Source: Alloascoidea hylecoeti (Eukaryota). From it: a stretch of 64,000 nucleotides of DNA. Location: the NCBI GenBank assembly GCA_001600815.1, contig BCKZ01000002.1:889725-953724 (forward strand), written 5' to 3'. The position numbers and the translations under genes were made by a program. Positions 10,305-38,915 of the stretch are shown piece after piece (the first letter of the stretch is position 1; each line of letters begins with the position of its first letter). A model generated the notes under the pieces. It had not been told where the DNA came from. It did not search any database and saw only the letters and a list, made by a program, of their open reading frames with translations.

Positions 10305-10378
10305 GACTTCGTGGCCAAGCTGGTTAAGGCGTGCGACTGTTAATCGCAAGATCGAGAGTTCAATCCTCTCCGAGGTCG
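10305..10378 (+). tRNA. tRNA-Asn(GTT)
   Basis: Acceptor stem GACTTCG/CGAGGTC, D arm GTGGCCAAGCTGGTTAAGGC, anticodon arm TGCGA-CTGTTAA-TCGCA, T arm GAGAG-TTCAATC-CTCTC, followed by a T6 terminator. Confidence 0.97.
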
Positions 10379-16700: not shown

Positions 16701-16860
16701 GTTTCCATTTTAGCTGGAGGAAGGATGAACATACCATATACCATCCATCGCCAAACTCACTATCGTTTGCTATCAATTGGACCTTATCGTCCAGCATCAG
16801 CGACACCTCGTCCACCAAGGTCGCGGCGTACGGGCGGGTTGTGATGTAAAAGGCGGACAT
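13789..16860 (-). CDS. BOI2: Boi1/Boi2/Pob1-type polarity scaffold (SH3-SAM-PH); exons 16860-16735 and 16632-13789
   Basis: Splicing out 16734-16633 (GTATGT..GACTAAT..TAG) rebuilds an SH3 domain: ...DSEFGDGWYM|GQNLRTNQIGLFPKEYV. SAM: FLQHKISGKILLELELSDIKELDV. PH: SGWMAKKGSGKITTWKNRFFTLHSTRLSYF. The BOI1 versus BOI2 naming is arbitrary. Confidence 0.9.
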
Positions 16861-17146
16861 GGCTCGACAAAGTACGGCGATCGGGGGGATTGTCTCAGGT
16901 CGCTGTGGATTCTGTTGAGGAGCTAGAAAGGAAGCTAGAGAGAATCTACAAACCACGGCGGGTGTGTGGGTGTCCGCCGCTGCACCCGCGCGTCGTGGCG
17001 CATGACGTGTGGTCACGTGTGCCGCCCTGTGCATGGACGAACGGCTGGGCTGCCACTGCCGCATCCGGAAGGTGGGGCGCCGGACTCCGCGGCAGGGAAT
17101 GCGGGGTTGGTTTAGACTACATCTGATAATGGCAGAATTATGCTGC

Positions 17147-17179
<33 letters not shown>

Positions 17180-17224
17180 TCCCAGCCACTCCCACTCCCA
17201 CTCCCACTCCCACTCCCAGCACCA
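16861..17224. promoter_or_regulatory. GC-rich bidirectional promoter with a GTCACGTG E-box (17012-17019) and (CTG)n and (CCACTC)n microsatellites
   Basis: 364 bp between the divergent ATGs at 16860 and 17225. RTCACGTG is the Cbf1/Tye7-type bHLH site. Microsatellites at about 17141-17218. Confidence 0.6.
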
Positions 17225-20200
17225 ATGGGCCCCGTCAAGAAGTACGTCTGCCCGCTGTGCCACAGGGCCTTCAGCAGGGCAGAGCATTGCAACCGCCACC
17301 AGCTGTCCCACTCCAACGAAAAGGCCTTCCGCTGCGACCAGTGCAAGTCTGCGTTCGTCAGAAAAGACCTGTTGGTCCGCCATGTGCGCACCGTCCACGC
17401 CAAAAAGTCCGCCCACGCCGTGTCCGTCGCCACTCCGGCTGCCACTCCGGCTGCCCTCCCCGCCAGTCCCTCCGCCGCCACCGCCATCGACATCTCAACC
17501 CCCTACTACCTCCATTTCATCTCCTTCGTCTCGGGCTGGCTCTGCAAATCCCCCTTCATACCCATCTCCGCCGTTATCCCGGACTCAGATCTATACTATG
17601 CCTGCTGCTGTTTAGGGGCCATCTCAAATTCATCCTTTTCAACCGCAAACCTCCTGAAACTGAAACTGGACGGCTCCATGGCCTCCAGCTCCCTTTTCCA
17701 TGCCCCTTTGCCCAACTCCCCTGTTAGCCTGCACCGGATAAACCTATCAATCCTATATACTTGGATTAATTTTCATATGGATATCCCTATAAATGATGAA
17801 ATTTATAATTTTCTATCTTCTTCGTTATCTCAATTATTAAACTCAATAATCCCTAAAAATGTAAACTCTTTGGATTGGAAAAAGTTCAAGTCTTGGCAAG
17901 TTTATGAATCGTCAAAAAGATCAATTCTTATTCTACATTTAACAATTTTAAAAATAAACAATGACATTCAAAATAAAAACTCAAACTCAAAGTTGAATGT
18001 AAATGTAAATACAAATGAAATCAATAATATAAATTCTATAATTCTTCAATTATTAATACCAAGTTCTGAATTATTATTTGAAAATTTCAATAATCAACAA
18101 TTTTGGTTAATGAATTTTCAAAATGAATCACTCATTTCATTTAATAATTTATTAGACACTTTTCAAAATCAAAAAAAAGAAGTCAAAATTACTGAATTTA
18201 CAATTAGTTATTTATCTCAATTATCACAACTATCATCCAATTATAATAATCAACAACAATTATCATCATCTGATTTATTAAAATTATTAAATATGCCAAT
18301 CATAAACAACAATGATAATTCAATTTCACAATTGCAACAACAAAACATTTTATTAAATATTAATACTTTAGATCCATTAATGAAATGTTCTTTTATATTA
18401 AAAACAATTTTACAAAATTCTTTTTTAACAAATATTGATCAAAATAATAATACAAACAATGATATTGATAATTTAAAATTATGTTTATTAAATTTTGAAA
18501 ATTATCCAATAATTAATTTTTTTAATTTATTTAAAAAAAATGAATTAATTTTAAATTCTTTTTTAATTATTATTAAATTATCAATTAATGAATTATTAAC
18601 TAATAATTTACAAAATAATTTACAAAATAATTTACAAAATAATCAAATTATTGATTATGATTATTTTAAAAATAAATCAATTAATGAAATTTATTCAAAC
18701 ATTTTATCAAATTTTAATAAAATTTCTTCAAATTTAAATATAAAATTTTCATCATCAACAACAAAAAATAATTTAACATTTAATAAATTATTTAAATTTA
18801 TTATAAATTCTCCATTATTTTTACATTTAATTTTATTCTTATTATTACCTAAAAATCATTTATTATCTTTATTACAATATTTTAAAATTAATTATTTAGA
18901 ATCTTTAATTCAATTTGGATTACTTGTTACAATTTTATGTTATAATTTTGAATCAATTAATCTTTTAAATAAAACTAAAAATTTAAATTCAAATGATACT
19001 AGAAATAATGATTTTATGATATTTATTTCAAATTTATTAAAAATTAATAAAATTGTTTATAATGATACATCAAATTATAATGATAATGAATTTATTACAA
19101 TACAATTTATAACTTCATTACTTGATTTTTTAAATTCAATTGTTATACAAAATGATAATATTAATATTAATTGTAATTCTAATTATAATGAAGGAAAAGA
19201 ATTTATAAAATTAATAAAAGCATTAAGTTTATTTAAAAATAGTATATTAATACAATTAAATTTTCAAAAAAATGAAAATGAAAATGAAAATGAAAATGAA
19301 AATGATTTACAAATAGATGAAAATGAAAAAGAAAATTTAAACACAAATGAATACAAAAATTTTGAAGAAAAAGAATTAAAACAGTTCAAAAAACATCAAC
19401 CAAATGTATATGAAAATTTACAATCAAGTTTTAAAATTATTGATTTTGATTTAAATAAATCAAATCAAAATTTAAATCAAAATTTAAATCAAAATTTAAA
19501 TCAAAATTTAAATCAAAATTTAAATCAAAATTCAAATCGTTCACATAGTTTTGGTTCATCAAATTCAATTTCAATTTCTACAAAAGATATTAATAAATCT
19601 TTAAAAAGAAGATCTTCTTCAATTTCTCAAAATGAACTACAAAAAATGAATTATTATTCAACTTTAAATTTTAATATTAATAAAAATAAAAATAAAAATT
19701 CTTCATTATTGAATAATAATAATAATAAAAGAACAGTAAAATCATTAAAAGTTGATTCATTAATTGATTCTGTTTCTGTTAAATTAAAATCATCATCATC
19801 TAACACTATACCTTCATTAAATAATAATTATAGTAATATTTTACCACCTCCAATTACGATTACAAATACAAAATTTATACCAAATACATACACTCCAACA
19901 ACAACATTACCTTCTCTTTCATCAATAATTGCTACTTCAAATTCAACTCAAACTTCATCACAACCAAAAATTCATATTTTATCATCAAATTCAGATCCAT
20001 CATCTCCAATATCAAATTTAACTTCGTTACATATTAGTAATTTACAACCTTCAATTTCAATTAGTAGCACTAGTTGTAATAGTCCATATTCACCTGTTTC
20101 TTCCATTTTAAGTTCAACTACAAATTCTCCTAAAATTCAACAATCACAATCTCAATCACAATCTCAATCACAATCACGTATAATGCAATTGCAACAAATG

Positions 20201-20440
20201 ATTTGTAACGATAATGATAATCAAAATACTAATTCAATTATAAATACTTCACAACAAAAAGAAGAACAGAAAAAACAGAAAGAAATAATTAATATTAATG
20301 ATGATGATAATGGTAATGATAATGATAATGATAATGATAATGATATTGATAATGATATTGATATGATTGATTTAGAAAAAGATGGTGCTATTTCATTAAG
20401 TATGATGGCTAGAAATAATGTTAATACCACGATTATGTAA
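17225..20440 (+). CDS. C2H2 zinc-finger transcription factor (two N-terminal fingers, long N-rich body)
   Basis: YVCPLCHRAFSRAEHCNRHQLSH and FRCDQCKSAFVRKDLLVRHVRTVH. The ATG at 17225 is preferred because the upstream in-frame extension is translated microsatellite. Confidence 0.88.
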   Translation: MGPVKKYVCPLCHRAFSRAEHCNRHQLSHSNEKAFRCDQCKSAFVRKDLLVRHVRTVHAKKSAHAVSVATPAATPAALPASPSAATAIDISTPYYLHFISFVSGWLCKSPFIPISAVIPDSDLYYACCCLGAISNSSFSTANLLKLKLDGSMASSSLFHAPLPNSPVSLHRINLSILYTWINFHMDIPINDEIYNFLSSSLSQLLNSIIPKNVNSLDWKKFKSWQVYESSKRSILILHLTILKINNDIQNKNSNSKLNVNVNTNEINNINSIILQLLIPSSELLFENFNNQQFWLMNFQNESLISFNNLLDTFQNQKKEVKITEFTISYLSQLSQLSSNYNNQQQLSSSDLLKLLNMPIINNNDNSISQLQQQNILLNINTLDPLMKCSFILKTILQNSFLTNIDQNNNTNNDIDNLKLCLLNFENYPIINFFNLFKKNELILNSFLIIIKLSINELLTNNLQNNLQNNLQNNQIIDYDYFKNKSINEIYSNILSNFNKISSNLNIKFSSSTTKNNLTFNKLFKFIINSPLFLHLILFLLLPKNHLLSLLQYFKINYLESLIQFGLLVTILCYNFESINLLNKTKNLNSNDTRNNDFMIFISNLLKINKIVYNDTSNYNDNEFITIQFITSLLDFLNSIVIQNDNININCNSNYNEGKEFIKLIKALSLFKNSILIQLNFQKNENENENENENDLQIDENEKENLNTNEYKNFEEKELKQFKKHQPNVYENLQSSFKIIDFDLNKSNQNLNQNLNQNLNQNLNQNLNQNSNRSHSFGSSNSISISTKDINKSLKRRSSSISQNELQKMNYYSTLNFNINKNKNKNSSLLNNNNNKRTVKSLKVDSLIDSVSVKLKSSSSNTIPSLNNNYSNILPPPITITNTKFIPNTYTPTTTLPSLSSIIATSNSTQTSSQPKIHILSSNSDPSSPISNLTSLHISNLQPSISISSTSCNSPYSPVSSILSSTTNSPKIQQSQSQSQSQSQSRIMQLQQMICNDNDNQNTNSIINTSQQKEEQKKQKEIININDDDNGNDNDNDNDNDIDNDIDMIDLEKDGAISLSMMARNNVNTTIM

Positions 20441-21244
20441 TAAATTACATATATGTCAATATTAATTTGATTTGGAATGCATTTATAAAATTATATACAT
20501 GTTTATTTTATTTGTTATTATTCATTTACTTTATGTAACGTTAATGTTAGAAGATCTAACACGTAAATTCTAGGAAAGCATATCTTGGTAACATAATAAT
20601 TTGGTGTATAATGGACGATGATAACACTAAATCGAGAATACCAATCTGGGTTCAGACCCTGCAGGATGGGATCATTCGCATATGTCACTGTCACTGTCAC
20701 TGTCACTGTGATTTATAAATTTAAAATGACGATTTGTAACATAATAAGTTCTTCTTAATCCTTTAATACAACCAATATAAACATTCTCAATTTTTAATGT
20801 TATACACAAAGAAGAATAATGGATCATGTATAGATCTTTAAATTCTCCCTATTTTTGTTAATTTAAACTTTAAACCGTTGATGCCTATAAACATTTCAAA
20901 ATTTTAACTTAATTTTAAGTTATCTCTCTTATGTAAGCAATTATTCATCTATTTAAAAGTCTAGAATTATCAATCCAAACTATATCATACCCTGGGAGGG
21001 GCATACATTACATTATTACATTACAGTTGGATCGTAAATAAATGTTTAATACTCTGTTGTGTTATATTGAAACATTCTAGGAAATAAACTCTCCATAAAA
21101 TGGAATTGAAAGCCTTCTTTTAGCCCTACGTATATCTTTTGCTTTTGGCTATTTGGATCGTATATATATTTTTTAGTCTTTAGTTTATTTTTCAATGGCA
21201 ACCAGCAGCCATATATATAAGATCAACATTAAATTAAAAAATTA

Positions 21245-22121
21245 TATTGTGATAGATCTAACGTCGATTTCGTTTGATATTCAATTTCTTTTGTAAACTC
21301 GATAGGAATGATTATTAATTATCAGAAAACTTGTTTGTAAGCCATTACATGAGCTTCTTCTTTTGTAGTTGGAATAATATCACTTCTCTCATTCCAAGTG
21401 CCATAATCTCAACTATTCTCCTGTCAATATGATAATGATTACATATCTGATCTATCCTCAATTAAATTATTCTTATGAAGAAATCTAACCACTTCTTTTA
21501 AAGTGATGATTCCTTATCAATGGTTATTGAATGTGAGTAATTAGATGGTTTAGAAACCAATTAACTGATTTTCTATTGAGTGGAATTGTAATGTTATCTC
21601 CTCGTAAGAAGTGGTGGAATAAGAAGGAGTTTGCATTAGAGACTTCTTAACATTAACATTTATATTTGGGTATAAATATTTAGAAATTGTTTCTTTAGTG
21701 GATTCGAAACGTCTAGGATTGATAATAGGATAATGAGAATTCATTGTACAAGTGAATTCATATGATTCATAACCACATTTCCCAAAGATATTGTTAATGG
21801 AGAGTTTAGAAACAACAGTGAATGGCTTGGAATCAATATTGGGAAAAGCCGGAGCAATGGGGAATAATTTGCCATGAACATCGGGATACTTATGAATAAT
21901 GGTAAATGGTTTAACACATTAGGAAATTTAGAAACAATGGTGAATGATTTTGCATAGATATTGGGGTATTTAAGAGCCATAGCAAATGATTTAGCCTTAA
22001 ATTTTGGCAAGTAGAAGTCATTATAAATGTAATATTGATATTGATCGATATGTTTTTATAATTCGAGAAATGGTACTAATACTATGGATATTTTCTAAAA
22101 TGCTTCTGTTGAAGATGGCAT
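21245..22121 (-). pseudogene. Decayed gene containing 14-aa tandem repeats
   Basis: ATG at 22121 is in frame with ORF 21741-22010 but has two intervening stops. A 4-nt deletion in repeat 2 shifts into the frame of ORF 21550-21744. A coding-like, stop-interrupted frame continues to about 21245. Confidence 0.55.
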
Positions 22122-23311
22122 AAAAAAAAAAAAATTTCATAAAGAGAGGAGAAAACAGCATAAACTTCTCCTCTTATTTGACTGACTATTTGCAGTCCGA
22201 ATAAGAAATAGGCATGTCCTATATTTTTGTTATTTGAAAAAAATCTTCCCCTTTTGATTACGTCGTCTAAATAAGGAATATTCGATTAAGTTCCAGAATC
22301 AGAGTAACCATCCTAGTTTTATGAAATGATTCTATAGACAGTGGAATCGCTGTCATAACGTTTGTGAGAATCATGTTGATCATAAATAATAGAATAAAGG
22401 GAAGAAGGTTGAACGGCTGAGACATGCATAAAACTCATATAATAATAATAACTTATTTAATAAATCAATCACTCTACAAATTAACAATCCAATAACTAAT
22501 ATCTCTACTAGACTACTAGTAGGCCCCTGGCTTGATATATTTTTGATTTGCAATTATTAATACAAATAGAATATTAATGTACGCTTCGCTTACTAGTCAT
22601 TTGAATATTATAATCATTCACTTTAAACTTATAATCATATGGCAAATTATTCTTGAGATATTGCAATATTAAAATTTCTTCAGCTAACCAGCTATATGTC
22701 AATAGGCATCTTTTAAAATATCCTGGTTGAAGCCCTATTCATCCTACCCTTTTATTTTTTTTTTACTTATTCGTCTTCTATGCCTTTACATTTATATTAT
22801 ATGCACATGTAATCTATATTTAACACAATTGGAAGTTTTCATACATAAAGCTAGCGCTGATGTTGAAATCACATTTTCTGCAACTGGAATGAAGTCATTA
22901 GATAGAAGTTCGGTCAAAAAATCATAATGTCAAGTCATAATGAATAAATTTATGATTATTGAAACAATTATCATTTAAAATTTTAATGGCAGCCTTCCAG
23001 TTGCATTAATGCATTAATATTTGATATCTTCGATGGAGCCGAACTATTATTATAATCAGTGATTGACAGCTGCAAAAACAAATGCACAGAAGCTTTATAA
23101 TTTTAATTATTTCCTTAATTTATTTATTTCAAAACAACTCCATCTCATACAAAATTGTGAATATTTATGGAAGTCATAACATATTTAAGATTTAAGATTT
23201 AAGATTAATATTTGATGGGTGTGCACGTGTTTTGTACCCCGTACAGATAAATATAAAAACTTCTGCTTCTTCACACAAATACATTTAAAGCGCCACTCCC
23301 ATACCAAAAAA

Positions 23312-23872
23312 ATGAAAGATCAAAATCGCTTTTCGATTTCCATTACAATGAAAGATAATAATAATGATCCCATTCATTATGAATACTCTCCTCCTCATCA
23401 TCATAGCACGGGCACAGGCACCGATCCAGAGCCTGAAGAGGTTCCTGACAAAAATACCAGACGTGCACCACATACCAGAAGTAATGATGTATTTTCTGCT
23501 ACTATAGAGAGCATTGAGCGGTTGAATATATTCAATATTACTAGGTATCGACATTATTACAAATTCTCAATTTCTATGCCTTATACATTTATTGATAAGC
23601 TTCATTTCTATTCTACATATGAACGAAGAGTCTTGATGCTAAGTGCCGAAGCTACGGAATACTCTGGGGATTATCGCCGTGATAAACTAATTACTAATAA
23701 GCTGTTTAATATTGAGATACCTAGTTTTTTGAAAGGAAAAGTCATGTATGGGAATTCTTTGAGATATAAATTGACAAGTGGATTTCTTCACATTTATTTA
23801 AAGCAAACAGATCCTGAAGATTCTGATTATACCAGGAATAAACCTAAACATAACCCAAGGTATGAATACTAA
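23312..23872 (+). CDS. Divergent Hsp20/alpha-crystallin-like protein, paralog A (186 aa)
   Basis: TATAAAAA at about 23252 and AAAAATG context. Aligns with the ORFs at 26222 and 31268. Pattern YYKFSISMP...FNIEIP...YKLTSGFLHIYLK resembles alpha-crystallin strands. Confidence 0.65.
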   Translation: MKDQNRFSISITMKDNNNDPIHYEYSPPHHHSTGTGTDPEPEEVPDKNTRRAPHTRSNDVFSATIESIERLNIFNITRYRHYYKFSISMPYTFIDKLHFYSTYERRVLMLSAEATEYSGDYRRDKLITNKLFNIEIPSFLKGKVMYGNSLRYKLTSGFLHIYLKQTDPEDSDYTRNKPKHNPRYEY

Positions 23873-24186
23873 TACTACGATGGTATATTTAAAGAAAAAA
23901 AAAAAAAAGGGTACCTGTAACCTACAGGCTACAGCTTATATTTGCGGTTATTGATTTTAGTCAAGAATCAGATCTTTGTTTGGTCAATGTAATTCAAATT
24001 ATCATAGAAGAAGTTTGTCATTGAATGTCCCAAAGTGTCTATTCATATTCTGATTATATTTTTATTTTATTTTGTTATTTTTTCTATATTTATATTTATT
24101 TGTATTCAATATTTATTTATTATACTACTTCCTTGCACCCACCCCCTGAAAATGGAATCTTATTTCTTTAATCGACGTAAAATATA

Positions 24187-25050
24187 ATGGTAGATACAGC
24201 TAATCAACGTCCTTACTCCAACCAAGATCTTGAAGATGCTATAAATGACGTTATAATGTATGGCGTTCCCAAAAAACGAGCAGCTAGAGAGAGAAATATT
24301 CCAATTTCCACCCTAAGAAGCAGACTTAGACGACGATCGAGAACAGAATCATTGACACCAATTACAACAAGAAATACGCATCTTCATGGTCCTTTCCATA
24401 GTCTGAATATTGAATCAGAAAGAATTCCTCGGTCTTTCACTGCACAACAATTGTTAACAGATGATGAAGAACAAAGTCTTATATTAAGAATTCTTTCATT
24501 ATGTGACGCAGGTGAATGTCCAACTAAAAATGGGATTGAACAAATGGCTGAACAAATTCTAAAAATTAGATATCAAGAATTACAAAAAACCGGTATTAAT
24601 ATTCCAGTGGCAATTGAAGATTATACTAAAATTGGTAAAACTTGGATTTATAGCTTCTTTAAAAGACATCGCAATGTTCGATATCAGAATGGGTTAACAA
24701 TTCAAGCTTATATTCGAAAACATGGGGTTAGAAGAAATATAGCAAATAGCGAACAAATGTTTGTTCATGAAAATCCTACTCCTTTATCTACAATACCCCA
24801 GGTACCTATACAAGACCCTGTACCCGACAGTAACAGTAGCAACAACATTAATAGCATTGATTACACTAATTCTGACGATGCCAATAGCTATGATCCCCCA
24901 AGTACTAATCCAGCTGGAAATAGAGAGGAAAGTTTACAAGATATTAGAAAAAGATTAAAAGATCTTTCTGATTTGCGAACAAGAATTGATACGGAGATTG
25001 AAAGATTAACCGATTTAGCGTTTGATAAAGCTGCTGCAACTGTTCGGTAA
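24187..25050 (+). CDS. CENP-B/pogo-derived DNA-binding protein (psq-type HTH plus Tc5-type HTH, no DDE domain)
   Basis: YSNQDLEDAINDV...RAARERNIPISTLRSRL; QQLLTDDEEQSLILRI...GECPTKNGIEQMAEQIL...IGKTWIYSFFKRH; C-terminal coiled-coil-like tail. Confidence 0.85.
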   Translation: MVDTANQRPYSNQDLEDAINDVIMYGVPKKRAARERNIPISTLRSRLRRRSRTESLTPITTRNTHLHGPFHSLNIESERIPRSFTAQQLLTDDEEQSLILRILSLCDAGECPTKNGIEQMAEQILKIRYQELQKTGINIPVAIEDYTKIGKTWIYSFFKRHRNVRYQNGLTIQAYIRKHGVRRNIANSEQMFVHENPTPLSTIPQVPIQDPVPDSNSSNNINSIDYTNSDDANSYDPPSTNPAGNREESLQDIRKRLKDLSDLRTRIDTEIERLTDLAFDKAAATVR

Positions 25051-25148
25051 ATATTATGGTGATGATGTAAAATACGCTTGTAGGATGTAAATTACACACA
25101 CACAACAAACACACCTCAACTAACTGTACATCTTGATCATATGGTACC

Positions 25149-25993
25149 ATGCCTTTAAACATCCTTCATCATAAATCTTATCATGTTTATAATCGCAAAA
25201 ATATTGAAAAAGTGAAAAGAGATGAAAATCAAGCAAAAATTTATGAGAATGAGAAACGATCATTGCGTGAAAAGTTACAACGAGAGCAAAGGTTAAGATT
25301 GTTAAGAAACAGTAATGAAGAAGGCCAGGATGAGTTAAAACACGAGAATGATGTTATGATTGAGCCAATAAAACATGTTAACTTTTTTGAAGATGTTGAG
25401 GTAATTTTTATTTTCTAACAGCATTTCGTTCCATTATTATATATAATATCTAACCAAATATTTATAACTTTTAGAATCCGAGAAGTAAAGCGGCTAAAAA
25501 TATTGTACATGAAGAGAAATCACCATTCGCCAAACAGCGTAAGTAATAATTGTTTTATTATTTAATAAGAGAAAGACCTCTAAAGATTATAAATATAGCT
25601 GCTCCTTGGTATGAAAAGTCGAAAGTTAATAAGGAAGATTCAACGAAAAAATTTAGATATAAAAAAGTTGATCCTGAATTAGCAAAATCATTGCATGACC
25701 CATTAAATGAGATGAATAAATTTATACAACAGACAAAGCAGTATAGAATAAAACAAGAGGCTTTAGAAAGACAATTTGGGGTTACTAATAATATTGAAAC
25801 TTCATCTTCAAGTACTCATAATACTATGCAGCCAACTAATGATAAGTCTGGGTCTATTAAAAGAGATAAATCTCATAAAAAATCTATACACAAAATCCAT
25901 AAAGACGAACATCATTATAGGCATAATCACAGGCATGATCGTAGGCATCATACGCATCATCATAGACATTACAAAAAACAACTCAAGGAATAA
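25149..25993 (+). CDS. Cir_N-domain LENG1-like protein; exons 25149-25400, 25475-25538, 25599-25993
   Basis: MPLNILHHKSYHVYNRKNIEKVKRDE N-terminus plus HVNFFED, PWY and DPLNEM motifs. Introns GTAATT..CTAAC..TAG (phase 0) and GTAAGT..TAG (phase 1) join in frame. Confidence 0.8.
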
Positions 25994-26221
25994 ATATCTT
26001 TTATAAAATGAATATTTAAAAGAACAGAATACATATACCATATATTCCAATTAATGTAATAATATGAATTTACCACCAATGGTAAACATCAAAAATCAAC
26101 AACTTAATAATAAATAAAACAAAAGTCAATGTATAATAAACATACAGATTATAAAACAAAATTCAAAATATAATAAACATACAGATAATAAAACAATTCA
26201 ACTATATTACACCAAATTAAT

Positions 26222-26632
26222 TTATCTTGACTCTAGTAATGCATCATAATGTTTTTTTTCATCTCCTGACCTGATATATCTCTTAGGCAGCAACACAATT
26301 ATAGTGTTCTCGAGTTGTTCATATGGAACAACCCCTCCATCACTTTTCCAAGTTATATGATGAGGTAAATTTATCTGGTACCATTTAATAATAGATGATC
26401 TTTTTAAAAAAATAAAATGATCTCTGACTTCCAAAACCCGAACTTTCATTAATATAATTCTTGCATGTGGAATTGAATGAATCTCCAAGTTTCCAACATG
26501 ATCTGGCGGAAGTTGAATTGTTAATTTATAATAATAAGCATGTGATTCAATATCTATTACTCTTAAAGTTTCTATTGGTATTTTTGTACGGGTTGTATTT
26601 GAACTTGGGGATCTTGTGAGTGGTACAGCCAT
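26222..26632 (-). CDS. Divergent Hsp20/alpha-crystallin-like protein, paralog B (136 aa)
   Basis: CAAAATGG start context and TATAAAAAG about 110 bp upstream. IDIESHAYYYKLTIQLP...WYQINLP...NTIIVLLPK. Confidence 0.7.
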   Translation of the reverse strand: MAVPLTRSPSSNTTRTKIPIETLRVIDIESHAYYYKLTIQLPPDHVGNLEIHSIPHARIILMKVRVLEVRDHFIFLKRSSIIKWYQINLPHHITWKSDGGVVPYEQLENTIIVLLPKRYIRSGDEKKHYDALLESR

Positions 26633-29600
26633 TTTGAAAACAGTGTATCTTGGTGTTTTTTTTTTTCAATAAAGTAAAGATTATAAATTGGAAGGAAATA
26701 AAATGGCGAGAAAAGAGTAAGAATAAAGAGAGGAAGGAGACTTTTTATATTTACCAATCTTTTAGGTCATATACACATTTTTAGTCATTTTACTTCTTCT
26801 TCACCTTTCAGCATTCAAAAACAACCAATGATATACTTTTCTTACAGGACTTAATTTGGTCATTAAAAATAACTATCTGTTGCTGAGTATTGTTGTATCA
26901 ATCAGATGTGTCAAGGCAGTAAACTTCTGGTTGAAGTTAGCTTTACCCGATTTATCCTTCATTTCGGGTCGGCGGATCTTGCGATTGGATTCACATTCAA
27001 CCAAATACAATCCAAGGACCCATTATGGGTTCTTTTAAAACCTTAAATCTTAGTAATGTTCCAAAGCATCTTAGATTTCATCACTTTCAATCTCCTCTCT
27101 CTTGAAATACTTAAATATAATTCATGCTGTATAAAAAACCTTTCTCTTTGGTTCTTGTATTTCAAATTATGAGCTAGAAAACTTAAGATTTTTTAATGCA
27201 TACCACTATATTCTTCGAACAATTTTATTGTGATGATATAGTTATATATACACTGTTTCTTTATTAACTAATAAATTTTGGCCTAAATAATCGAATGATT
27301 TCCCATTTGGTTTTAACTACTAAATTAAAACGTCAAGTTTCTAAAATTTGAAATTCGTATTTTTAATTAATTAATGGTAGAGCTATTGATTAGACAATTA
27401 CAATATTAATTCATTCCAATTATCTGAAAATAGAATTTGCTGTCCCAAGAAGTCATGGATTATTTCTTTGTGAACTCTTTTCTAGGTATTCAAAAAAAAA
27501 AACTTATAATTATAATTATAATTAGTCATATTAAAGAAAAACGTCTATATATAATTAAATATATAATATTATTTACTGGGCAAAATGCATACAAAAGTTA
27601 ATTTATAATCTGAAGGATTGTATAGACTATTAACTAGCAATAAGAACAATGCCATAGCCACGTAAATAAAGGATTTTTTAATAGACTTCATGATTAAAGG
27701 TATTAATATTGGTCATACTTATTTCTATTCAAATGACTATGGCTATGCTCTTCTATATATATATATATATATATAGTTCAAAAAACTATTCTCGGAGAGT
27801 AATAATAAGATATCGATATAGTCTGGGAAAATACAATTAATGTAAACACGTACGATTGAATGAGTGATCCTTTTAAAATTAGTGAGGAATTATAAGAGTT
27901 ACAAACGGTCGTTACCTATATATGCCATGATTAGCAGGTTATCCTGATAAGAAGCTTATTCATCCTACAATCAATATCTTTCGATATTGCAATTGACAGT
28001 TAATGTTGCAATCTTTAAGTGACAAATAGACTAAACTTTATATTGTTGCACTATCGATGTGATGACAGTTGGGTGGGTATAATGCACTTTTTTTATCTCT
28101 ATACTATGGAAAAAATCTTTTCCAAGTATAATCGCAAAATCTTGAACATAAAGATATTTCTATAGCTCTATTATTGGTTTTAAGTGCTATGATCATATGC
28201 ATGATAGATAGGTAGACAGTCAACGGTTATATGTAACTATAATTCTAAAATTAGTACCAAACTTGTCAGTTATAGGTTTCTGCAAGTGAGTTCATTTTCA
28301 GGAACATAGTCAAATAGATATATTATTATAATGAGATTTTAACGTTAGGACAATTTAAAATCAAATTTTAATACTTGATTAATGTTCAATTTTCTCTATT
28401 ATCTTATAATCAGCATGCATATGGTTATATTATAATTGGCTTGTCTGCAACTGATAGCTAGTGATGACAGTTCTGACTTTTTCGGATACCAATATCGATT
28501 TTCAGTAATCATTAATTCGTTTTAGATCCAACTAATTAAAAGATAATCCAAAATAGTCATATATGGTTATATACAAGACTCTAGAGCTAAAATATAATTA
28601 TAGCTATTAATGTTGTCATTCGTGATTTCGTGATCATTTGCAAAATCTATATAAAATCCAAATATTAATAGACTCAAATAATACCCTCGCTAGACGTCTT
28701 TAAACTTTTTAAAAAATGGAATTGCAAGGCTCTAATTCCAACTCTAAATATTACAGTATTAATTTCAGTTGTAACCCACATTTACATGAAGTTTTAGTTA
28801 TAGCTATGAGTTTTTGACTAGCGGCAATAATAAGTTATAGCGATCTTAAAGATTGTAACTAATATTGTAGTGGTGGGTTCGAATGGCGGGGAACAGAAAA
28901 TATATATAGTATATCTCATGATTCAGACCCACATCATTTTCTAGAAGCTTAGATATAAGACTATATAATAGATAAGCCATTCATTATAATAAAGTTAACT
29001 ATAATAATATTGCACTTGCTTTTTAACTGGTATTTATAACCTTATATAATAGTTATATAATTATAGGCCTATAATATTTGATCTAAACTATCAGAGTATC
29101 TTACAGATGCATAAATATATAATGGCTACATAATATCCATCATGTTATTAAATTTCCATACTTCATCTTAAACATATACGTACATTATATTACTATCAAT
29201 CTAGATTTTTAAAAGTTATGTTTATATATATATATATATATCAGTTACTTTAATCGCTGTAGTCATGTTTTATTCACTATATATCAATATATATTTAATG
29301 GGTCATCAGTTAGAGTGCAAAGTCGTTCCAGTCAGAAAATTTTTGAGAGCATTCGAAATTCGAAATTTGAAATTCGATTTATAAATGGCTATGGAGAAAA
29401 GGTAAAACCTCGCCCATTTGGTCGGAGTAGGTCACACCTCTGCTTACACTGGGTTTGTAATGAAGCCATATGTGGACTAAGAGACGAGTCTGGATTCATT
29501 ACAGAATCTTCATTCAAGCTTTTGAAGGCTAGGTGGTGTTCTTCAGTATGACACTGTCACAATCCATAAATCAAAAGAAAAAAAAGAAGAAAAACAGGAG

Positions 29601-31267
29601 GAGGAGGAGGAAATTCAAATGGGACAATTGCGATGGCCTGTGTGCTTCATGGGCCTGATTCCCATTGAAAAACGTGTGGCACAAGATAGGAGACATGCAA
29701 TCATAGTATGGCGTCAAATAGATCAGGAATCGTCTTTAAAAACTATTTTCAATCCGCTAGATCAATCGCTTTTTGATCGGCTCATCACACCCCAAAGCAA
29801 TTACAGCGAGTTGACGCAACAAAAGAAGACGATATTTATCACTAGATTTTCCTCTAGTGATACTTAGGTAGGCTAAGGAACGTGATATCTATTTTGTTTG
29901 ATAATATTTCCTTGAGAATTGGTTCTTTAATCAAGATTTTATGTTTATAAACTGTATCAATATGTTTTTCAGAGTAAAACAAAATGACCTTATAACTAAC
30001 TACGGATGACTGTATATTATAAATGTATCCTTTGCCAGTTTTTATACCAGTATGCTGCATATAAATTTGTTCTTTGTTCTTCAATGTCATTGTACCGGCT
30101 GCCTCAAGATTTTGCAATACTGTTCCTTAAAATTATTGCTTTACATAATATATATTAATTACGTAATACTTCCATATCTATATTTTCTGGTTTAAAATGA
30201 AAGTTTGCAATTGATTAATAGGGTTGTGATGTGTAGGCCTTACATATATGTAATAATTATGTATTACCAAATAGCCTCCAACATGGTGTCAATATTAGAG
30301 TTATATTTAGGCTCCCAATACTATACTATATTTAAATTTCTATAGGGTACTAAGTAGTCTCTGTGTTTGTGCCAGTACAAACTTAAATAATCATAGAATC
30401 CCCCAATCAATCTCATTTAATATTCGTAATGTAACCCTACTAGTAGAAGTTGAATAGTGGCCTGTTACAAGTTTAAATTCGTTCCACTGTACACCGTACT
30501 TCGCTTTTTTTCCGGCATAATGAAAAGGTGGAACATTACGCTACTTATTATTATTATTTTTACACATACACAGTTAGCCGAAAACTATGTATTTACAAAA
30601 TTTTCAAACAGATGAGCTCAGAAACTTATATATAGAAATGTACAGTATGATTGTATCTTTTCTTTAATCAATAAATCTAAAGTAGGCCTAGGGATTATTT
30701 GTGACAGTGACCATTTTTAATATATTGCAAACTATTCATGTCATTATTAAGCGAGTTAGATAACGAATTAATTTAAAAGATTTCTGCCAATTAAAGTGCT
30801 TTCAGGGGTCTTTTCTTATCAAGTGCCTTCCGTACGATTCTCAACTTGTCATTTGTGACGAACTTCGCATTCTGTAACCAATTTCCTCCCCAAAAGGAAA
30901 TAAAGATGGTAGTTGCGTTTTTACTCATTATATAATCGTATATTAGTCCTCAAAAAAGACAATACCGATAATACGACTACTCCTAGAAACTCCCTTCATC
31001 AAATAAATTTTTACATTTGAAATCAGAGTAAAAAAACATATAATTCACACATATATGGTATAAGACCATGGGGAACAAGCCATGACTTATTAATATTATA
31101 ATAAATAGTATAATCCACAACTATTAACACGTTGTAAATTGGAATTTAAATAAATAGATCCACAGTATCAGTAATACTCTCATTGTGATCGTGTAATCAT
31201 AATTATAATCAATAGAACTAATTATAACAGCTACCTATATCTAGTATACCGAGAAAAGCGCGTTCAC

Positions 31268-31624
31268 TTATAGCATAAATTCTTTCAACAAAAACACGTT
31301 TAAAATATCTCCGAATTTTGTAAATTCGTAAGAAATTGGATTTATTTTTGGGTCATCATCCCATGACATATCTTCTGGTAGTTGGACCAGGAACCATTTA
31401 ACTTTCCCGATTTTATTTAAAGATATGAACTCATCCATATATTCGATGATTATCCCCCTTATGAAAAGTGTGCTTGTGTATGTGTTTAGATAAATTTCCA
31501 ACTTATCTAACAGAATATAGGGAAATGGGATTGAAAATCTGTAGTACTCTGGATATGGTTCAATCTTAGAGACTTTAAGGGGTTGAATGGTGGATTTTCT
31601 GGAGCGTACAATTGGAATTGCCAT
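31268..31624 (-). CDS. Divergent Hsp20/alpha-crystallin-like protein, paralog C (118 aa)
   Basis: CAAAATGG start (MAIPIVRS, compare MAVPLTRS in B). KIEPYPEYYRFSIPFP...LFIRG...WFLVQLPEDM...GDILNVFLLK. Confidence 0.7.
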   Translation of the reverse strand: MAIPIVRSRKSTIQPLKVSKIEPYPEYYRFSIPFPYILLDKLEIYLNTYTSTLFIRGIIIEYMDEFISLNKIGKVKWFLVQLPEDMSWDDDPKINPISYEFTKFGDILNVFLLKEFML

Positions 31625-32715
31625 TTTGTGATTATAACTAACTCCACTCTTTTTATATTGTAAGGTGTAATATAATGAGAGATAGAAATGCAAACAAAAT
31701 TAGTTAAGAAATTTCTGGTTGTTTTTATAGTTTTTGAAATCTTATTATATGACATTAAATATTATAATTGAAGATCTATTGAAGATTATAATTTTTATAG
31801 ATCTAAAACACTTTCATGAGTGGAAACAGTGTATATTGGTTTGCAGAATAATAAAAATTTTGAAAATTTAATATTAACTGTCATCTGATTATTATTTTTG
31901 TGGGGATATATTGATTGAGCCATTTCATACATATGATCATGATGGAAATAGGTTGAATGGTCATGATAATGTTCCATAATTATATAAATTCATTGGCCTA
32001 ACGCTTATAATTAACAATATATTTATTTATATATATTTATTTTTAAATTTTGAAGTAAAGTCTTGAGATCTATATTTATATAATAACCTATAATAGGCAT
32101 TTTCATATAAATGATTATAATTAATGATAATATTGTGCGGCATGTTCTTATGTTCTATACCAGTACAATTTTTTTTTCACCTATTGTTAGGGATATTCTT
32201 AAGCAAAGGGTATGTGAATTAAATGGTGATCTATGCTTTAATTAATTAGCGAATCATCCAAAATTCTTCGATGACCTCTACACACCTTAATTGACACCTA
32301 AGTAAAAACTAGTAGTGATTTGTAAGAGAAGAGTTTGGTGATTGAATTATTCCATACACTCGGCGAATTAGATTAATAATTTTAAGCCAATTTCCCTAAC
32401 ATTAATCAGCGGATATACAAGATAATAATTAGTGTATTTAGTGGTTTCTCAGAATAGTTGTTAATCATAGTTCAAAACAATAACTAGCGATTTAACTAAA
32501 AGTTATATCGGATAATTTGCTAATTAATTTTCAATATTTTCACTAATAGGTCTTGACACTACTGCTACCAATTTTGAAAAAACTGTTATTATTTAGAACA
32601 TAAAAATATATCCATTCTGCACACTATGATTATGCATATAACTTTCATGACTATCGAATTTATTATAACTTAGAAAATAGAAAAGGGGGATTTAGATATT
32701 TCAAAAGTCAGATAC

Positions 32716-32956
32716 TAGGCCGCGCATCACCGAAACTCGAACACCAAACAAACACATTTTGGCGAACAGTATCGAAGCGGATTTTGACGATTACAAGGCA
32801 AACCCAAAGCTTTTCTTGACTGGCAAATAGGCGAGTCGTGGAGAGCTCATGAACAATCCAGGCGATATATATGATAATTTTTAGTAAAAACACGAGCAAA
32901 AAAGTACAGAAAGAATATATATAAAAACGCCAAATTTTTTGTCGATGCGTGGCCTA
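32716..32956. mobile_element. 241-bp non-autonomous hAT-type element (MITE)
   Basis: TIRs TAGGCCGCGCATC and (reverse complement) TAGGCCACGCATC match 12/13. Flanking 8-bp direct repeat tcagatac / ccagatac. Subterminal TTTGGCG / CGCCAAA. Confidence 0.8.
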
Positions 32957-34934
32957 CCAGATACAAGCATGTATAATCATTAATTAAAATGAAGTCAATA
33001 ATATTGGTGCAAAAGAAGAGAATTATTTTGTCACTTAAAACAAATTACAAAATGGCTATAACTAATTTTATAGTACAATTAGTAATTTGTTGGTTTCTAT
33101 AATTAACTAACCATGTCGATTAAGCAGTGAATAAAAAACATCTACCAGTGGAATATGTAGAGCTTGGATATTTACTAAAAGAAAGAAATTTCAAAAGGTA
33201 GAAAAGAAAATGGCACCTTTATTTCCTTTTTGGTAAAATGGTTACGGCGGGATGTCTCGAAATTCGCTCTCAGGCTAAACTCCAACTTCTGTTTTAGTAA
33301 TGGACAAGGGAAAATAAAGCTTTTCCTTGCTCTCTTTTCTATAGTTTAGTGTGTGGTATGTGTTGATTATAAGAAAGAGGTAACCTCCAATTGCAATATA
33401 ACGAATTATGCAGCGAATTATTATTTAAAAACAGGCCAATTGTACAGCTTACTGTGAGTGGCGAAAGAATCTTGTATTTTGGCTGTAACGGTGGTTCCAC
33501 TGGTATCATATTCTTATTATAATTAGTTGAAAGTATATCATCACAATAATAGCGCTATTAAATATTGTAGATAAATTGATATATATGTATATTATAAGGT
33601 TATATTGATGTGAATAAGAATATATATATATATGCAAAGACAAATTATCGGAATAATTATGAGGTTATATCGGCACACCTTCCGACAGAAGTCTATATTA
33701 TACTATTGTAATTTAATCAACAATTACAAGAGTTATAAATCTAGATAAATTGACTCCCATAAGCTTATGTATACGGATCTCCGAAAACAGCATGATCATG
33801 TTTATTCACTATGACCAATACCATCACTATATAAAAAAAGATATAATAGCCATTCATAATATATAGTGAGCTCCTGATGGAGAAAGCTAAAACAGGAATT
33901 GGGATATATAATATTAATGTATGCAGCACGTAACCTAATATTAATTAATATCTTATACATATAGTTAAGATCATATTAACCTTGATCCTTCCACTATAAA
34001 CTAATTTAGGTTCTGAATTGGTACTATTTATTAATTGAAATTTCAAGCTTAATTATAATTAATCTTAAAAGTAATAGTTAACCATGAACTTTCCACATCA
34101 ATGGCCAACTCAATTATTTGCTGCTTCCCATTGTAAGTTGCATTTTTCTATAAACATGTATGTAGTAAATATGGTTATAAGAATACACTATTAACAATCA
34201 TTTGAATTCATATGTCAAATAAATGGTACATCTCTAACCGTGTTTCCGGACAGTAAATACGAACAGAAATCTCATTGCATTAATTGCAATTGGTCCCGAT
34301 TGGGAAACATAATATTATTGGATAAAATTTAGAGATAAAATATTATTATATTCTCACAATTAATATCGAAAATGCAATATAATGCTAACAAAAAATAGGG
34401 GAACCTTCGAGTGGCCATTTGGATTTGTTATATTTTAAGCCTTTGGATGACATTAGTACTAGATAGTAGGTATACTTAAAGAAAAAAAGTTTTATTTGGC
34501 ACCATATACTGAAATATATGTTATATTATGATTGCAAACATGTATACCAGTACGTCCTATAAGTATATTTATTTATATAAGATACGTGTAAGTCCAAGTG
34601 TAATATTTAATAGTTGTTCATATTCATAAAGTTAATTAATGTCATAATAATTATATATAATGTTACAATTTATATACATCTGGCTTACAATATTGATAAA
34701 TTTTACGAAGAAGGTTGAACGTTAATAGGCTTCGAAATATTCCTGATATTATGAAGTAGTAAATATCTTTTGATAGATTTTGAGTTAGCTATAGCTATAT
34801 GGGACCAATATAATAGCAAGATATACAAAAGCTATAATTAACTATTACTACGGTTCAGGAGAATGTTAATTATAGCAAAAGGATGGTCACCCCCATAACC
34901 CTATAAACGACACTTACTATTATTATGGGTCTGC

Positions 34935-35132
34935 TAAATAAAGGGTAAGTTACGCACCAACCGCCAGTTCAGAAAATCATCTCGAAATTTCATGCCCGGT
35001 AAAACTTTTTAAAATACCCAGATCCATACCAAAATGGCGTATAGCAAAACAAACCCCATCCCCCTGACCCATAAACTGAGAAATGCTCAAAATTTAGAAG
35101 ACCCAGTTGGTAAACCACGAACCCTTTACCTA
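34935..35132. mobile_element. Possible old MITE with degenerate TIRs
   Basis: taaataaagggtaagttacgcaccaac versus the reverse complement of the right end, taggtaaagggttcgtggtttaccaac. The interior is GC-richer than the flanks. Confidence 0.35.
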
Positions 35133-37013
35133 CATAATATATATATCATATTAATTAATTGGTTGCAGTTGAATATTAGATTTAAAATGATTATGGATTC
35201 TGATATATATCTAATATCCATAATTCTAAACTAGATCTAGAGCTCGATAGGACCATGTGTTGTGTTGTCATTTTATAAATTTTTTTTTTAGATTTACTTA
35301 TAATAAATATAATTACTGTTAAGACATATAGATATGAATATATTAATATTCAAATGCAAATATATCTGAAAAGTCTGAATCAGATTCGAAATTATCAATT
35401 ATTTTTCTAGAAGCTACAACAGCAAAATGTTGCGATTATATACGTTTATGTATAGATTCACACAGTGCACACATGAGCAGATACGCTGTAGTACACCATA
35501 TTTGGAAATTGATACAGGATCCTGATCAATATTGAACCCGTAGTAGATTTTGCAACTTTGTAATTGTTATACCTAAATATATTCTTCACCTATACTAATT
35601 TCTTATATACTTATATCTAAAATATACATGTAGTGTAGTGTTATCCGTGTAATTCTACCAATAAGCCTACACTTGTACGCCGTAACTAATTAATCATAAT
35701 ATAAATGTAACTGGTGACTTTAATTTTCACTGTGTCTATATTATGCATACCTAACTTGCAACTTTGTCGCTAGAGTACATTTATTATAATTAAGATATAC
35801 TACAATGGAATGGCTGACTACATTCATTTTTGTCATAAAAATCTAAAATAAATCTGCTTTTCTGAAGTACTAAGGTGTCAAATAAGGTGAAGTGCGACCA
35901 AGAAATATGTTCATTTAAATATACTAAGGTTAAGATAAATAGTTTTAGGTTCGTGCTTACACAAGTAGCTCATATAAGCTAAAGTTATAGATATTCATAG
36001 CACCACTTGTTTAGGTACCCAGATTTAATATATATATTCTTATTTTTATTCCTATGACCATATATAAAACACACAGCTGTGTTCTTGGGTTAATAAATCA
36101 TTAACCTTAAGCCCAGGAATATGTAATGGAATTCAATTAAGTCAATGATACAATAAGCACGACCCAACCGAATGGGAGTGTGGTGAGCTACAAACAATGT
36201 TCTATATAATCCATAATTGTGAGATATAAAATGAAGCTAGAATAGCGAGTGGTGTCTCAAATTACTACCGGTATATATGAAAGACAGACTGTTTGCACTA
36301 CAGCGGTCAATGTTTATTCACAGAAAAGACATAGATGATGTGCAATAAAATTGCAAAACTAGATCAGAAGTTTAAGTGCTCAAGTGAACTCCATTGAAGC
36401 ATCTAACATTCAGTAGAAGCCTGTCATACGTGATCAATCAATATATGCGAAAAAAAAGCAAAACAAACAAACAAACAAACAGGAGATAGGCCTCCAGCAG
36501 GAGTGAAACGAGTACTAAATAACGAGGTGTGACCAAATTCAATCTCTATTACTGTACGAAATACAGCCATAGGCAATCTATCCGTGGCTCATATTACATG
36601 TAAGTAGATAAATAAGCATATTCATATTCTAAGTTTACATTATCTGACCTTCTCTAGGTCTGGTCTGCTTTGTATAAAGCGTCTCTGTGCACCGCTTATT
36701 TCATACTTCCAAGCTTGATTGCGGCATTAAATCTGCCATATCAGTTTTTTTGAAGATTTTGATCATGATAATTTATAATAACATGATAGTGTTACCACTT
36801 TATACGAGCTCGAGTTTCACCTGGAACCACACTTCAACAGCTGAGGTAGTGTACAAATTGGAGAGCTAGGTTCAAGGATTCTGTCTTCAACATCAATTAG
36901 TGTAGGGTCTGTGGACTGTATTGTAAAAATTGAAATTGAAATTGATCTTGAGATAATAGTGCTATTGTAAGTATGCATATGCGTCATCGTATAAATGCCG
37001 TTTACGATTACAA

Positions 37014-37465
37014 TACATATACTGCGCGTCACTGAAAATAAACAACTTTTAGGAAAATCAAAAAAGTTTTAATACCCCTCGCGGAAAATGTGACCACGGC
37101 ACCAAAATTACTTCATTTATATATATTAAAGACGACAGAAGGTAAATAAGTGGCACATATCAATCTTATCATTTCAAATTAATTTTTGCATCTTTTGCCA
37201 AATATTTTATATATCTCTATCCCTTAACTATGTAGGCCTCCAGGTTTCGAGGCCATTCAAATAATTATATAAGAGGCATTGTAATGTTTGCATATAATCA
37301 TGTGCATTAAAACAATATGAACTTACCTTATCCGGGTGAGTAAATGCATATGCATGATGATATATTTCCTCATGGCGTATAGTATGTACCATTACATGCA
37401 TATTGATGAAGAAAAATTCGCGAGAAAAAAAAGTTGTTCATTTTCAGTGACGCCCATCATATGTA
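37014..37465. mobile_element. ~450-bp MITE with TA-bounded TIRs (Tc1/mariner-superfamily-like)
   Basis: gcgtcactgaaaataaacaactttt (37026-37050) versus the reverse complement of 37429-37453 matches 24/25. The outer tacatat also pairs. Confidence 0.7.
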
Positions 37466-38915
37466 GAGTATAGTATTAAATGGAAGTTTATGAATTGAAA
37501 CATTATTAACGCATATATATATGATAATTATAAGATCATATTTAATATTAATTATGTTACTCTATACTAGCGTATACAGATTATTATTGTATTTACGCAC
37601 ATAGAGCTCTAGATCTTGATCCATATAATTGCTAGCACCCCCGATTGATTGACTTCATTGTTTTGGAAGTTCTTTTTCTCCTCTATAAAACAGGGGAAGA
37701 ATTGTCTAGATTTCTTCATAATTTTATAACTCTCATGATTCCTATCTAATATCTATCATGATTTATATCTCCGCTGATTTTGGGTTATTGACATTAACAC
37801 CATGTACAGCAAATCATTTGCCATAACCAAAAATTAATTCCCTCTAAACACAATTATAGTAGCTTTATTGCCAAATAGCCATATATCGAAAACTTCTCCC
37901 TTAAATTATACTCGGCTTAAAGGAGTGAGTACTAGCACTGGCTTAGATAATTTCATTTAGAGCCCCGCGCATCTGCTTCAATGTGGTAGATAATTATATT
38001 GTATAAAAGGGATTACCAATGAGTTTTCCGGTAATTTTTGGCCAATAGAACAAATGAATTTAGAATCATCTTTGGTGCAAGGATAATAGAGTGTCAAGTT
38101 GTTAACACATGACAGAAACTCCTTCGTGAAATTTTGTACTAAGCGCAAGAATATATAGAGGATTGTAATTGAGTGACATCATTATATGATTATCTTATAA
38201 ACGATCCGCCATTATAATATTATAACTCCACCGACTGGTCCTATAATAAACTATAGATCAAGCTGAAAATAGTAATCTATAACAACAGTTAGCTATAGTT
38301 ATAATTATTTATTTATCAACGCGTTCACATAAGGTTATGCATGAGCAACATTGAAGACATATTCCTATAGCTGTAGCTACCACCAGTTGAAGTTTATATA
38401 TAATTAGTTGTATATATATGAAGAATATCTATTAATTGTATTCATTGGAAATATAATTGGCCATGGGTTTAGAACTTCATCATTAGTCAATTAACTTCAT
38501 ATAGCTAGGATCTACAAAATACTTTCTTGAAGTTGAAAGTTTAAATTAAAGGAATGCAATAACTATAACCAACATTAAACATTAAACGATAACCAATACA
38601 AAGTCTTAAATAACAATCTAAATTTAAATGGCAGATAACAAACAACAAACAACAATTAAAAAATAACAAATAACAAATAACGAATAACAAATAAACAAAT
38701 ATGAATACTAACTCGACAAATATTAATAAGATGTTTTAAAGAAAAACAAAATATTTTAACCGATAATAAAAATTTCTTTAAAAAATGCTATTTTGTCTAT
38801 AAATAATACATGATTGCATATACAATATAGGCACCATAACCCAATTTCACCTTGTTTTTTAGTCTTTTGATTAAAATTTACAACATTAGGTAACTCAGTA
38901 ATAGGATCAATTTCC

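Follow-up and report, generated by a model that had tools for sequence, protein, structure and literature searches.

We analysed a 64,000 nt stretch of an Alloascoidea hylecoeti contig (BCKZ01000002.1, positions 889,725 to 953,724 of the forward strand), which is referred to as the window, and found that three small genes, named A, B and C, lie together within 8.3 kb of a block that is poor in open reading frames (ORFs). We conclude that A, B and C are genes of the expressed type that belong to a small unnamed family, and that each encodes a single folded domain remotely related to the alpha-crystallin domain (ACD) of the small heat-shock proteins (sHSPs). To this reading we assign a probability of about 0.65. 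The three genes are as follows:

23312-23872, plus strand: gene A (P0001), long form, 186 aa, from the ORF and its translation
26222-26632, minus strand: gene B (P0002), short form, 136 aa, from the ORF and its translation
31268-31624, minus strand: gene C (P0003), short form, 118 aa, from the ORF and its translation; the protein ends 3 residues past the last strand

An earlier note on this DNA had claimed three small ORFs at these coordinates, and both the ORFs and the peptides quoted from them are present in the ORF list and the translations. The motifs K[LW][FY]xxx[IL]P and Y..strand..K, also described there, were found in A, B and C alike. An identical copy of protein C (P0004) is contained in a public assembly collection. 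All three genes have AAA right before the ATG and a TAA stop codon, and TATAAA is found upstream of each of them (at −60 for A, at −117 for B, and at −33 and −105 for C).

A, B and C are paralogs. BLASTP aligned B and C with an E-value of 6e-16 (27% identity over 124 columns), A and C with 9e-9 (31% identity over 72 columns), and A and B with 6e-4 (24% identity over 80 columns). Smith-Waterman z-scores based on 2000 shuffles of one partner were 22.0, 13.0 and 10.8 for the pairs in the same order, and for every pair none of the 2000 shuffles reached the observed score, so that the similarity passed the test against shuffled sequences that the earlier note had set for it. No similarity among the three loci was detected at the DNA level, neither in the coding regions nor in the flanks (best blastn E-value 0.015, for short low-complexity matches), and the repeat search of the window revealed no repeat shared among them. 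In the aligned codons of the trio, identity at position 2 was 0.55–0.68 compared to 0.30–0.41 at position 3. The dS values of the pairs are saturated (1.63, undefined and 1.69), and dN/dS consequently carries no meaning here. Because the proteins are similar without similarity of the DNA, and because of the ORF lengths and the identity at position 2, A, B and C are, as judged from their sequences, old duplicates with frames kept open by selection on the protein, and not chance frames. This bears out the view of an old paralog family under constraint (BLASTP, shuffles, and codon position 2 above position 3).

The breadth of the family was determined by applying a profile of the trio to 1.84 billion representative proteins with a cut-off of E ≤ 1e-3. 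This search returned eight proteins, namely A, B, a 56 aa fragment of C and five others (P0007 to P0011, 141–397 aa) from outside the window. When the trio profile was compared to these five relatives by hhalign, the probability was 99.3% (E 4.3e-20). A word-indexed search of 5.8 billion proteins, performed with two family alignments, only retrieved proteins of the window and P0008. The suggestion that tBLASTn might reveal further copies was not borne out within the window: neither a fourth copy nor a decayed fragment was detected there by this program, and hmmsearch with the family profile, run on all six-frame pieces from 25 aa upwards, yielded A, B and C and no other match at E < 0.5. The expectation of a small family, on the other hand, agrees with the five outside relatives among all representatives searched; these relatives could either come from related yeasts as orthologs or be additional paralogs from the same genome. 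In a tree of the eight domains only the pair P0008 and P0009 was supported (95/93), A joined them weakly (65/65), the rest was not resolved, and the terminal branches had lengths of 0.7–1.75 changes per site. The N-terminal regions of A, P0008 and P0009 are long and disordered. Within the terms searched, the literature contained no report on a yeast family of this kind. The family is tiny, fast-evolving and unnamed.

All three proteins contain a common domain of about 100 residues, which we placed as follows:

23507-23809, plus strand: ACD-like beta-sandwich domain of A, residues about 66–166, from the strands predicted by AlphaFold2 (AF2) and from alignments
26279-26581, minus strand: ACD-like domain of B, residues about 18–118, from the AF2 strands and the conservation table
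31277-31588, minus strand: putative ACD-like domain of C, residues about 13–116, by homology to the modelled proteins B and A

For B, AF2 predicted eight strands and a short C-terminal helix following them, with a mean predicted local distance difference test (pLDDT) of 76.0 and a predicted template modelling score (pTM) of 0.62. The strands comprise residues 20–23, 25–30, 34–40, 47–54, 59–71, 74–88, 104–107 and 110–117. For A the mean pLDDT was 69.3, with values of 81–94 for the blocks of the domain, and the strand order within residues 68–165 was the same as in B (68–71, 73–78, 82–88, 93–102, 107–118, 124–135, 151–155 and 158–165). The best-conserved columns of the family are the hydrophobic residues of the strand cores together with P42, L89-P90, W95, L111 and L115 (numbering of B).

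We compared the predicted structures to known folds by Foldseek. Among the PDB matches listed for B, 38 of 39 were sHSPs or alpha-crystallins and the remaining one was the CS domain of Sgt1; the best of these matches was Hsp16.0 of S. pombe (3w1z_B, E 3.4e-4). All 34 PDB matches listed for A were sHSPs, and the best among them was again 3w1z_B (E 5.0e-4). In the viral library BFVD the best 11 rows consisted of seven HSP20/SHSP proteins, three CS/SGS proteins and one unnamed protein. For B the ESM Atlas listed SHSP/HSP20 clusters at 0.89, which we take as a lead only. These data support the prediction that the common domain of A, B and C is a beta-sandwich of the ACD type.

For the comparison at the level of sequence profiles, we used an ACD reference alignment of ten sequences, comprising IbpA and IbpB of E. 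coli, six plasmid Hsp20 proteins and two IbpA homologs; this reference is narrow, since it only includes proteobacterial sHSPs. The alignment of all eight family members matched this IbpA-class profile in hhalign with a probability of 55.6% (E 1.2e-4, score 34.0, 121 columns). None of 120 column shuffles reached a score of 34 (maximum 15.3), and the reversed alignment scored 11.1. The five outside relatives alone resulted in a score of 34.9, which was not reached by any of 150 shuffles (maximum 16.5). When the family was compared to an earlier, narrower reference of near-identical IbpA orthologs, the probability was 7.5%, and with IbpA alone it was 3%. In the register of the alignment, Y-Y-K-x-S-I of the family falls on H-Y-R-I-x-I of the ACD, the L-P turn falls on L-A/L-P, and G-x-L-x-I-x-L falls on N-G-L-L-x-I-D-L. 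We conclude that the domain very probably belongs to the HSP20-like (ACD) superfamily as a remote member.

Several observations weigh against this reading. The trio alone only reached a score of 16.6 against the ACD profile, with a probability of 0.8%, which corresponds to noise level; the link to the ACD therefore runs via the five outside relatives, and even for the whole family the probability was only about 56%. None of the eight members matched Pfam HSP20 (PF00011) at E ≤ 1, nor did they match any other Pfam family at this threshold except for a chance-level match of P0008 to PTP2, and the family profile gave no match to PDB sequences at E ≤ 10. In the F-E-R-x-F strand of the sHSPs, the E-R with the arginine that is conserved in the superfamily stands opposite a gap of two residues in the family, a placement by hhalign at low identity and therefore uncertain; excerpts of PMC6119766 locate this arginine in strand beta7. 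On the structural side, the models of B and A were both built on one shallow alignment of 8 sequences. The Foldseek TM-scores were modest (0.31–0.47 for the query, 0.35–0.61 for the target, with a root mean square deviation of 4–12 Å), and no more than four PDB matches for B and two for A had E ≤ 1e-3. For C the ESM Atlas provided no usable match among the named clusters. In addition, the codon-usage log-odds of A, B and C were 0.109, 0.134 and −0.046, respectively, for a score trained on 13 long genes that themselves scored 0.038–0.444. Thus, the part of the earlier ACD reading that concerns fold (AF2, Foldseek) and register (hhalign compared to shuffles) found support, while a match to PF00011 (0/8) or to PDB sequences by profile (0) was not obtained. 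The family has a basic residue (K, R or H in 7/8 members) two positions ahead of the conserved aromatic residue, and a Trp after the L-P motif (W95 of B), likewise in 7/8 members, is a signature of the family.

Some of these observations are in agreement with a different explanation, according to which the domain merely resembles an ACD and represents a CS/p23-type or independent beta-sandwich, in a non-chaperone adaptor that is unrelated to sHSP biology. Such a protein would account for the lack of matches to Pfam HSP20 in all eight members, the modest TM-scores, the unaligned beta7 arginine and the W95 signature, and CS or SGS proteins do appear in the fold searches (one of the 39 PDB matches listed for B and three of the best 11 BFVD rows). 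However, sHSPs dominate the PDB fold matches listed for both proteins, with 38/39 for B and 34/34 for A. Furthermore, the hhalign match to a true ACD profile extends over the whole domain in register and lies about twofold above all 120 and all 150 shuffles. A CS-type domain in particular is disfavoured by the absence of any Pfam CS match in the eight members. We consider this explanation unlikely.

Although the domain is very probably related to the ACD, A, B and C are not canonical sHSPs. This conclusion is based on the missing PF00011 match, the unaligned arginine and the Trp signature of the family, and on three further features. First, in none of the three proteins is the last strand followed by an I/V-x-I/V motif. 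Second, only about 17 residues in B and about 12 in C precede the domain (in A about 65 residues, predicted with low confidence), which confirms that B and C have no long N-terminal arm. Third, no three-unit heat-shock element was found in the 800 nt upstream of each gene (3 × 800 nt), with the motif defined as in S. cerevisiae. A stress response element (STRE, likewise defined as in S. cerevisiae) occurred once upstream of the trio, at −788 of A, compared to a background of 0.46 per 800 nt.

The same features bear on the view that the three genes encode ordinary stress-induced sHSP chaperones of very divergent sequence, which form large oligomers and hold unfolding clients. The ACD-type fold and the profile similarity would fit this view, and so would the long disordered N-terminal regions of A, P0008 and P0009, which are sHSP-like. 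Ordinary sHSPs are, however, difficult to reconcile with the very short N-termini of B and C, with the lack of the I/V-x-I/V motif past the last strand (C ends three residues after it), with upstream regions that contain no heat-shock element and no more STREs than the background, and with the low codon bias and the unaligned arginine. This view appears quite improbable to us.

The surroundings of the trio were analysed as well. The ORF-poor block and the genes that define it are:

20441-38915: ORF-poor block of 18.5 kb, between a C2H2 zinc-finger gene and a Zn-cluster gene, both transcription-factor genes
3′ limit at 20440: C2H2 zinc-finger gene flanking the block
41807 down to 38916, minus strand: Zn-cluster gene flanking the block
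24187-25050, plus strand: helix-turn-helix (HTH) ORF of 287 aa between A and B, with Pfam matches below the cut-off

Only four ORFs of the block reach 118 aa from ATG to stop, namely A, B, C and the HTH ORF. Base shuffles of the block contained 0.036 such ORFs per shuffle, and only 3.6% of 500 shuffles contained any. The HTH ORF reached 16.9 bits against HTH_psq (cut-off 20.4) and 17.7 bits against HTH_Tnp_Tc5 (cut-off 22.2), and had no meaningful match among PDB sequences. The block itself may represent a regional centromere, repeats that have decayed, or a cluster of small genes that escaped annotation. A scan of the block for the point-centromere pattern (CDEI-AT-CDEIII) was negative, Pfam on the stop-to-stop ORFs of the block provided no lead to its nature, and Rfam gave no match at E ≤ 1 over positions 20400-39000.

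The adjoining HTH gene, which is of the CENP-B/pogo type, could be taken as a cue that a mobile element carried A, B and C as cargo or left them behind as remnants, and both its sub-threshold matches to HTH_psq and HTH_Tnp_Tc5 and the unusual scarcity of genes over 18.5 kb are consistent with such an origin. However, the genes are not flanked by terminal repeats or by long inverted or direct ones, and when the 82 stop-to-stop ORFs in the block with a length of 50 aa or more were compared to Pfam, no transposase, integrase or reverse-transcriptase domain was found. Recent transposition is also contradicted by the lack of shared DNA similarity among the three loci. We regard a mobile origin as very improbable. 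The probability that the trio consists of chance frames or decaying pseudogenes is close to nil despite the weak codon bias, with the value for C being the worst, and the lack of a Pfam family, since the ORF lengths are far above chance in DNA of 30% GC, the three proteins are similar to each other without DNA similarity, relatives exist elsewhere and a confident beta-sandwich is predicted.

The window is AT-rich, with a GC content of about 30%, and its ORFs are long and mostly without introns. Among them are fungal hallmarks such as a Zn(2)-Cys(6) cluster protein, a SUN-family protein, Med5 and Pex14, and furthermore an Ams1-like GH38 mannosidase, MmgE/PrpD, a prenyltransferase beta subunit and a TAF1-type DUF3591 protein. 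This gene content suggests a chromosome of a budding-yeast-like ascomycete. The trio contains 4 CTG codons and nine long genes contain another 20, in hydrophobic or Leu-like contexts, and for this reason CTG was translated with the standard Leu. A code with CTG as Ser was considered and rejected on account of the Leu-like contexts; it would alter only 1–2 residues per protein. Of the 20 CTG codons counted over the nine long genes, 9 fall into a GC-rich stretch (43% GC) that covers the 3′ part of the gene for the prenyltransferase beta subunit (42154-43347, plus strand).

Further observations were made in and around the ORF-poor block. The 287 aa HTH ORF corresponds to the DNA-binding half of a CENP-B/pogo-type protein without the catalytic transposase domain, and its codon score is good (0.253). 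Next to it, a split ORF at 25149-25993 (plus strand) has a weakly Cir_N-like N-terminus (E 0.09) and is apparently interrupted by two short introns, whose donors read GTAAT or GTAAGT and whose branch sites are of the CTAAC type, as judged by eye; some genes of this genome would therefore be spliced. From 27000 to 38900 (about 11 kb) C is the sole long ORF. At 29300-29900, inside the ORF-poor stretch, a GC island (39–41% GC compared to 21–33% around it) carries two neighbouring frames, of 112 and 113 codons, which differ in phase; the island has no Pfam or Rfam match and may represent either a pseudogene with a frameshift or an RNA gene that was not recognised. An inverted repeat of 42 nt with 86% complementarity is located at 37009-37050 and 37429-37470, also in the ORF-poor stretch, and its arms are separated by 378 nt. 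The C2H2 zinc-finger gene upstream of the block consists of one ORF of 1135 aa (16001-20440) with 45% GC at 16–18 kb and 15% GC at 18–20 kb. Its GC-rich part encodes homopolymer runs of Cys and Leu and runs of Pro-Thr, and is overlapped by long ORFs on both strands (16666-17493, minus; 17140-17727, plus). A tRNA-Asn (GTT) at 10305-10378 (plus strand) is the sole Rfam or ARAGORN match in the window.

A possible function of the small proteins was deduced from their domain and their N-termini. The predicted single ACD-type sandwich shows no enzyme-like features and is present in three diverged copies, and A, B and C would act as ATP-independent binding modules rather than as enzymes. As they have neither a long hydrophobic N-terminal region nor a C-terminal IXI/V motif, dimers or small homo- or hetero-oligomers are more likely than assemblies of 12–32 subunits. 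Regulation of the trio is probably developmental or constitutive and, considering the promoters without heat-shock elements, not by classic heat shock. The following short peptides are relevant for the interactions that such proteins might undergo:

23459-23482, plus strand: motif R-R-A-P-H-T-R-S of A, residues 50–57, aligned to the N-termini of B and C
26609-26632, minus strand: N-terminal peptide M-A-V-P-L-T-R-S of B, with an IXI-like V-P-L and R-S after it
31601-31624, minus strand: N-terminal peptide M-A-I-P-I-V-R-S of C, with I-P-I and R-S after it

B and C thus start with M-A-[VI]-P-[LI]-x-R-S, while A has A-P-H-T-R-S at the aligned place, and columns P4, R7 and S8 of the trio alignment are invariant. 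The beta4 segment ([LI]-E-[IVL]-[YF]-S) and the beta8 segment ([YF]-x-[FL]) belong to the better-conserved parts of the family. As described in excerpts of PMC6119766, IXI/V motifs in the N-terminal regions of HspB6 and Tsp36 occupy beta4/beta8 pockets on partner chains; the N-terminal motif of HspB6 is V-P-V, and this protein is described there as lacking a C-terminal IXI/V motif. Phosphorylation of HspB6 by PKA is followed by its binding to 14-3-3 (excerpts of PMC6802120 and PMC6119766).

Since [VI]-P-[LI] is of the IXI/V type, HspB6 and Tsp36 provide a precedent and the beta4 and beta8 segments are conserved, we propose that the N-terminal [VI]-P-[LI] of B and C may dock in trans into the beta4/beta8 pocket of a partner ACD, either that of a paralog or that of a canonical sHSP of the host. 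The neighbouring R-S could make this docking sensitive to phosphorylation. The proposal is based on a three-residue motif in two proteins, which counts against it. An extended version would describe a yeast-lineage-specific family of minimal ACDs, in which the IXI-type peptide was moved to the extreme N-terminus and the arms were lost. B and C would then be phosphorylation-switchable caps or adaptors that plug into the beta4/beta8 pockets of host sHSP oligomers or of each other, or offer them empty pockets, and that tune size and activity rather than hold clients, with the three genes being kept together in the 18.5 kb block. We consider this scenario rather unlikely in its full extent.

The fold and the superfamily discussed here are well known, and the novelty lies in a very rare, unnamed branch of minimal architecture, possibly with an N-terminal docking motif. 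If our reading of a family remotely related to the ACD is true, an unnamed and very rare HSP20-like branch exists that combines ACD-only proteins of 118–136 residues with longer siblings, and all members of this family are missed by current family libraries. It would also be a case of sHSP-like domains that are re-used outside the classic heat-shock response. Natural minimal ACDs could serve as small models for the control of assembly by the beta4/beta8 pocket and an N-terminal docking peptide. The finding is a modest and tidy extension, which by itself opens no long-standing question.

Among known systems, the sHSPs are the closest in structure, with S. pombe Hsp16.0 (3w1z), Xanthomonas HspA (3gla) and wheat Hsp16.9 (1gme) as best matches among those listed. 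Like the sHSPs, A and B have a predicted eight-strand ACD-type sandwich of about 100 residues, and the full domain of the family aligns to them in register, with the hhalign probability of about 56% given above. Unlike the sHSPs, the family shows no match to PF00011, leaves the beta7 arginine unaligned and has its own Trp after the L-P motif; the trio has neither a C-terminal IXI/V tail nor heat-shock elements in its promoters, and B and C are nearly devoid of an N-terminal region. The CS/p23 proteins (the CS domain of Sgt1, 2jki, and viral CS and SGS proteins) share the HSP20-like sandwich superfold and appear among the fold matches, but they are a minority there and always rank below sHSPs, and no family member matches Pfam CS. 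B and C resemble HspB6, as it is portrayed in the excerpts cited above, in that they open with [VI]-P-[LI], a motif of the same kind as its N-terminal V-P-V, and lack the C-terminal IXI/V motif. The motif of B and C is followed by a basic-Ser site, and phosphorylation data exist for HspB6, the likeness here being that of the three-residue motif only. In concept only, our proteins can also be likened to the kinetoplastid ‘ACDp’, which belong to another lineage and which an excerpt of PMC6197667 presents, just as we propose for A, B and C, as ACD-bearing proteins that are not classical sHSPs.

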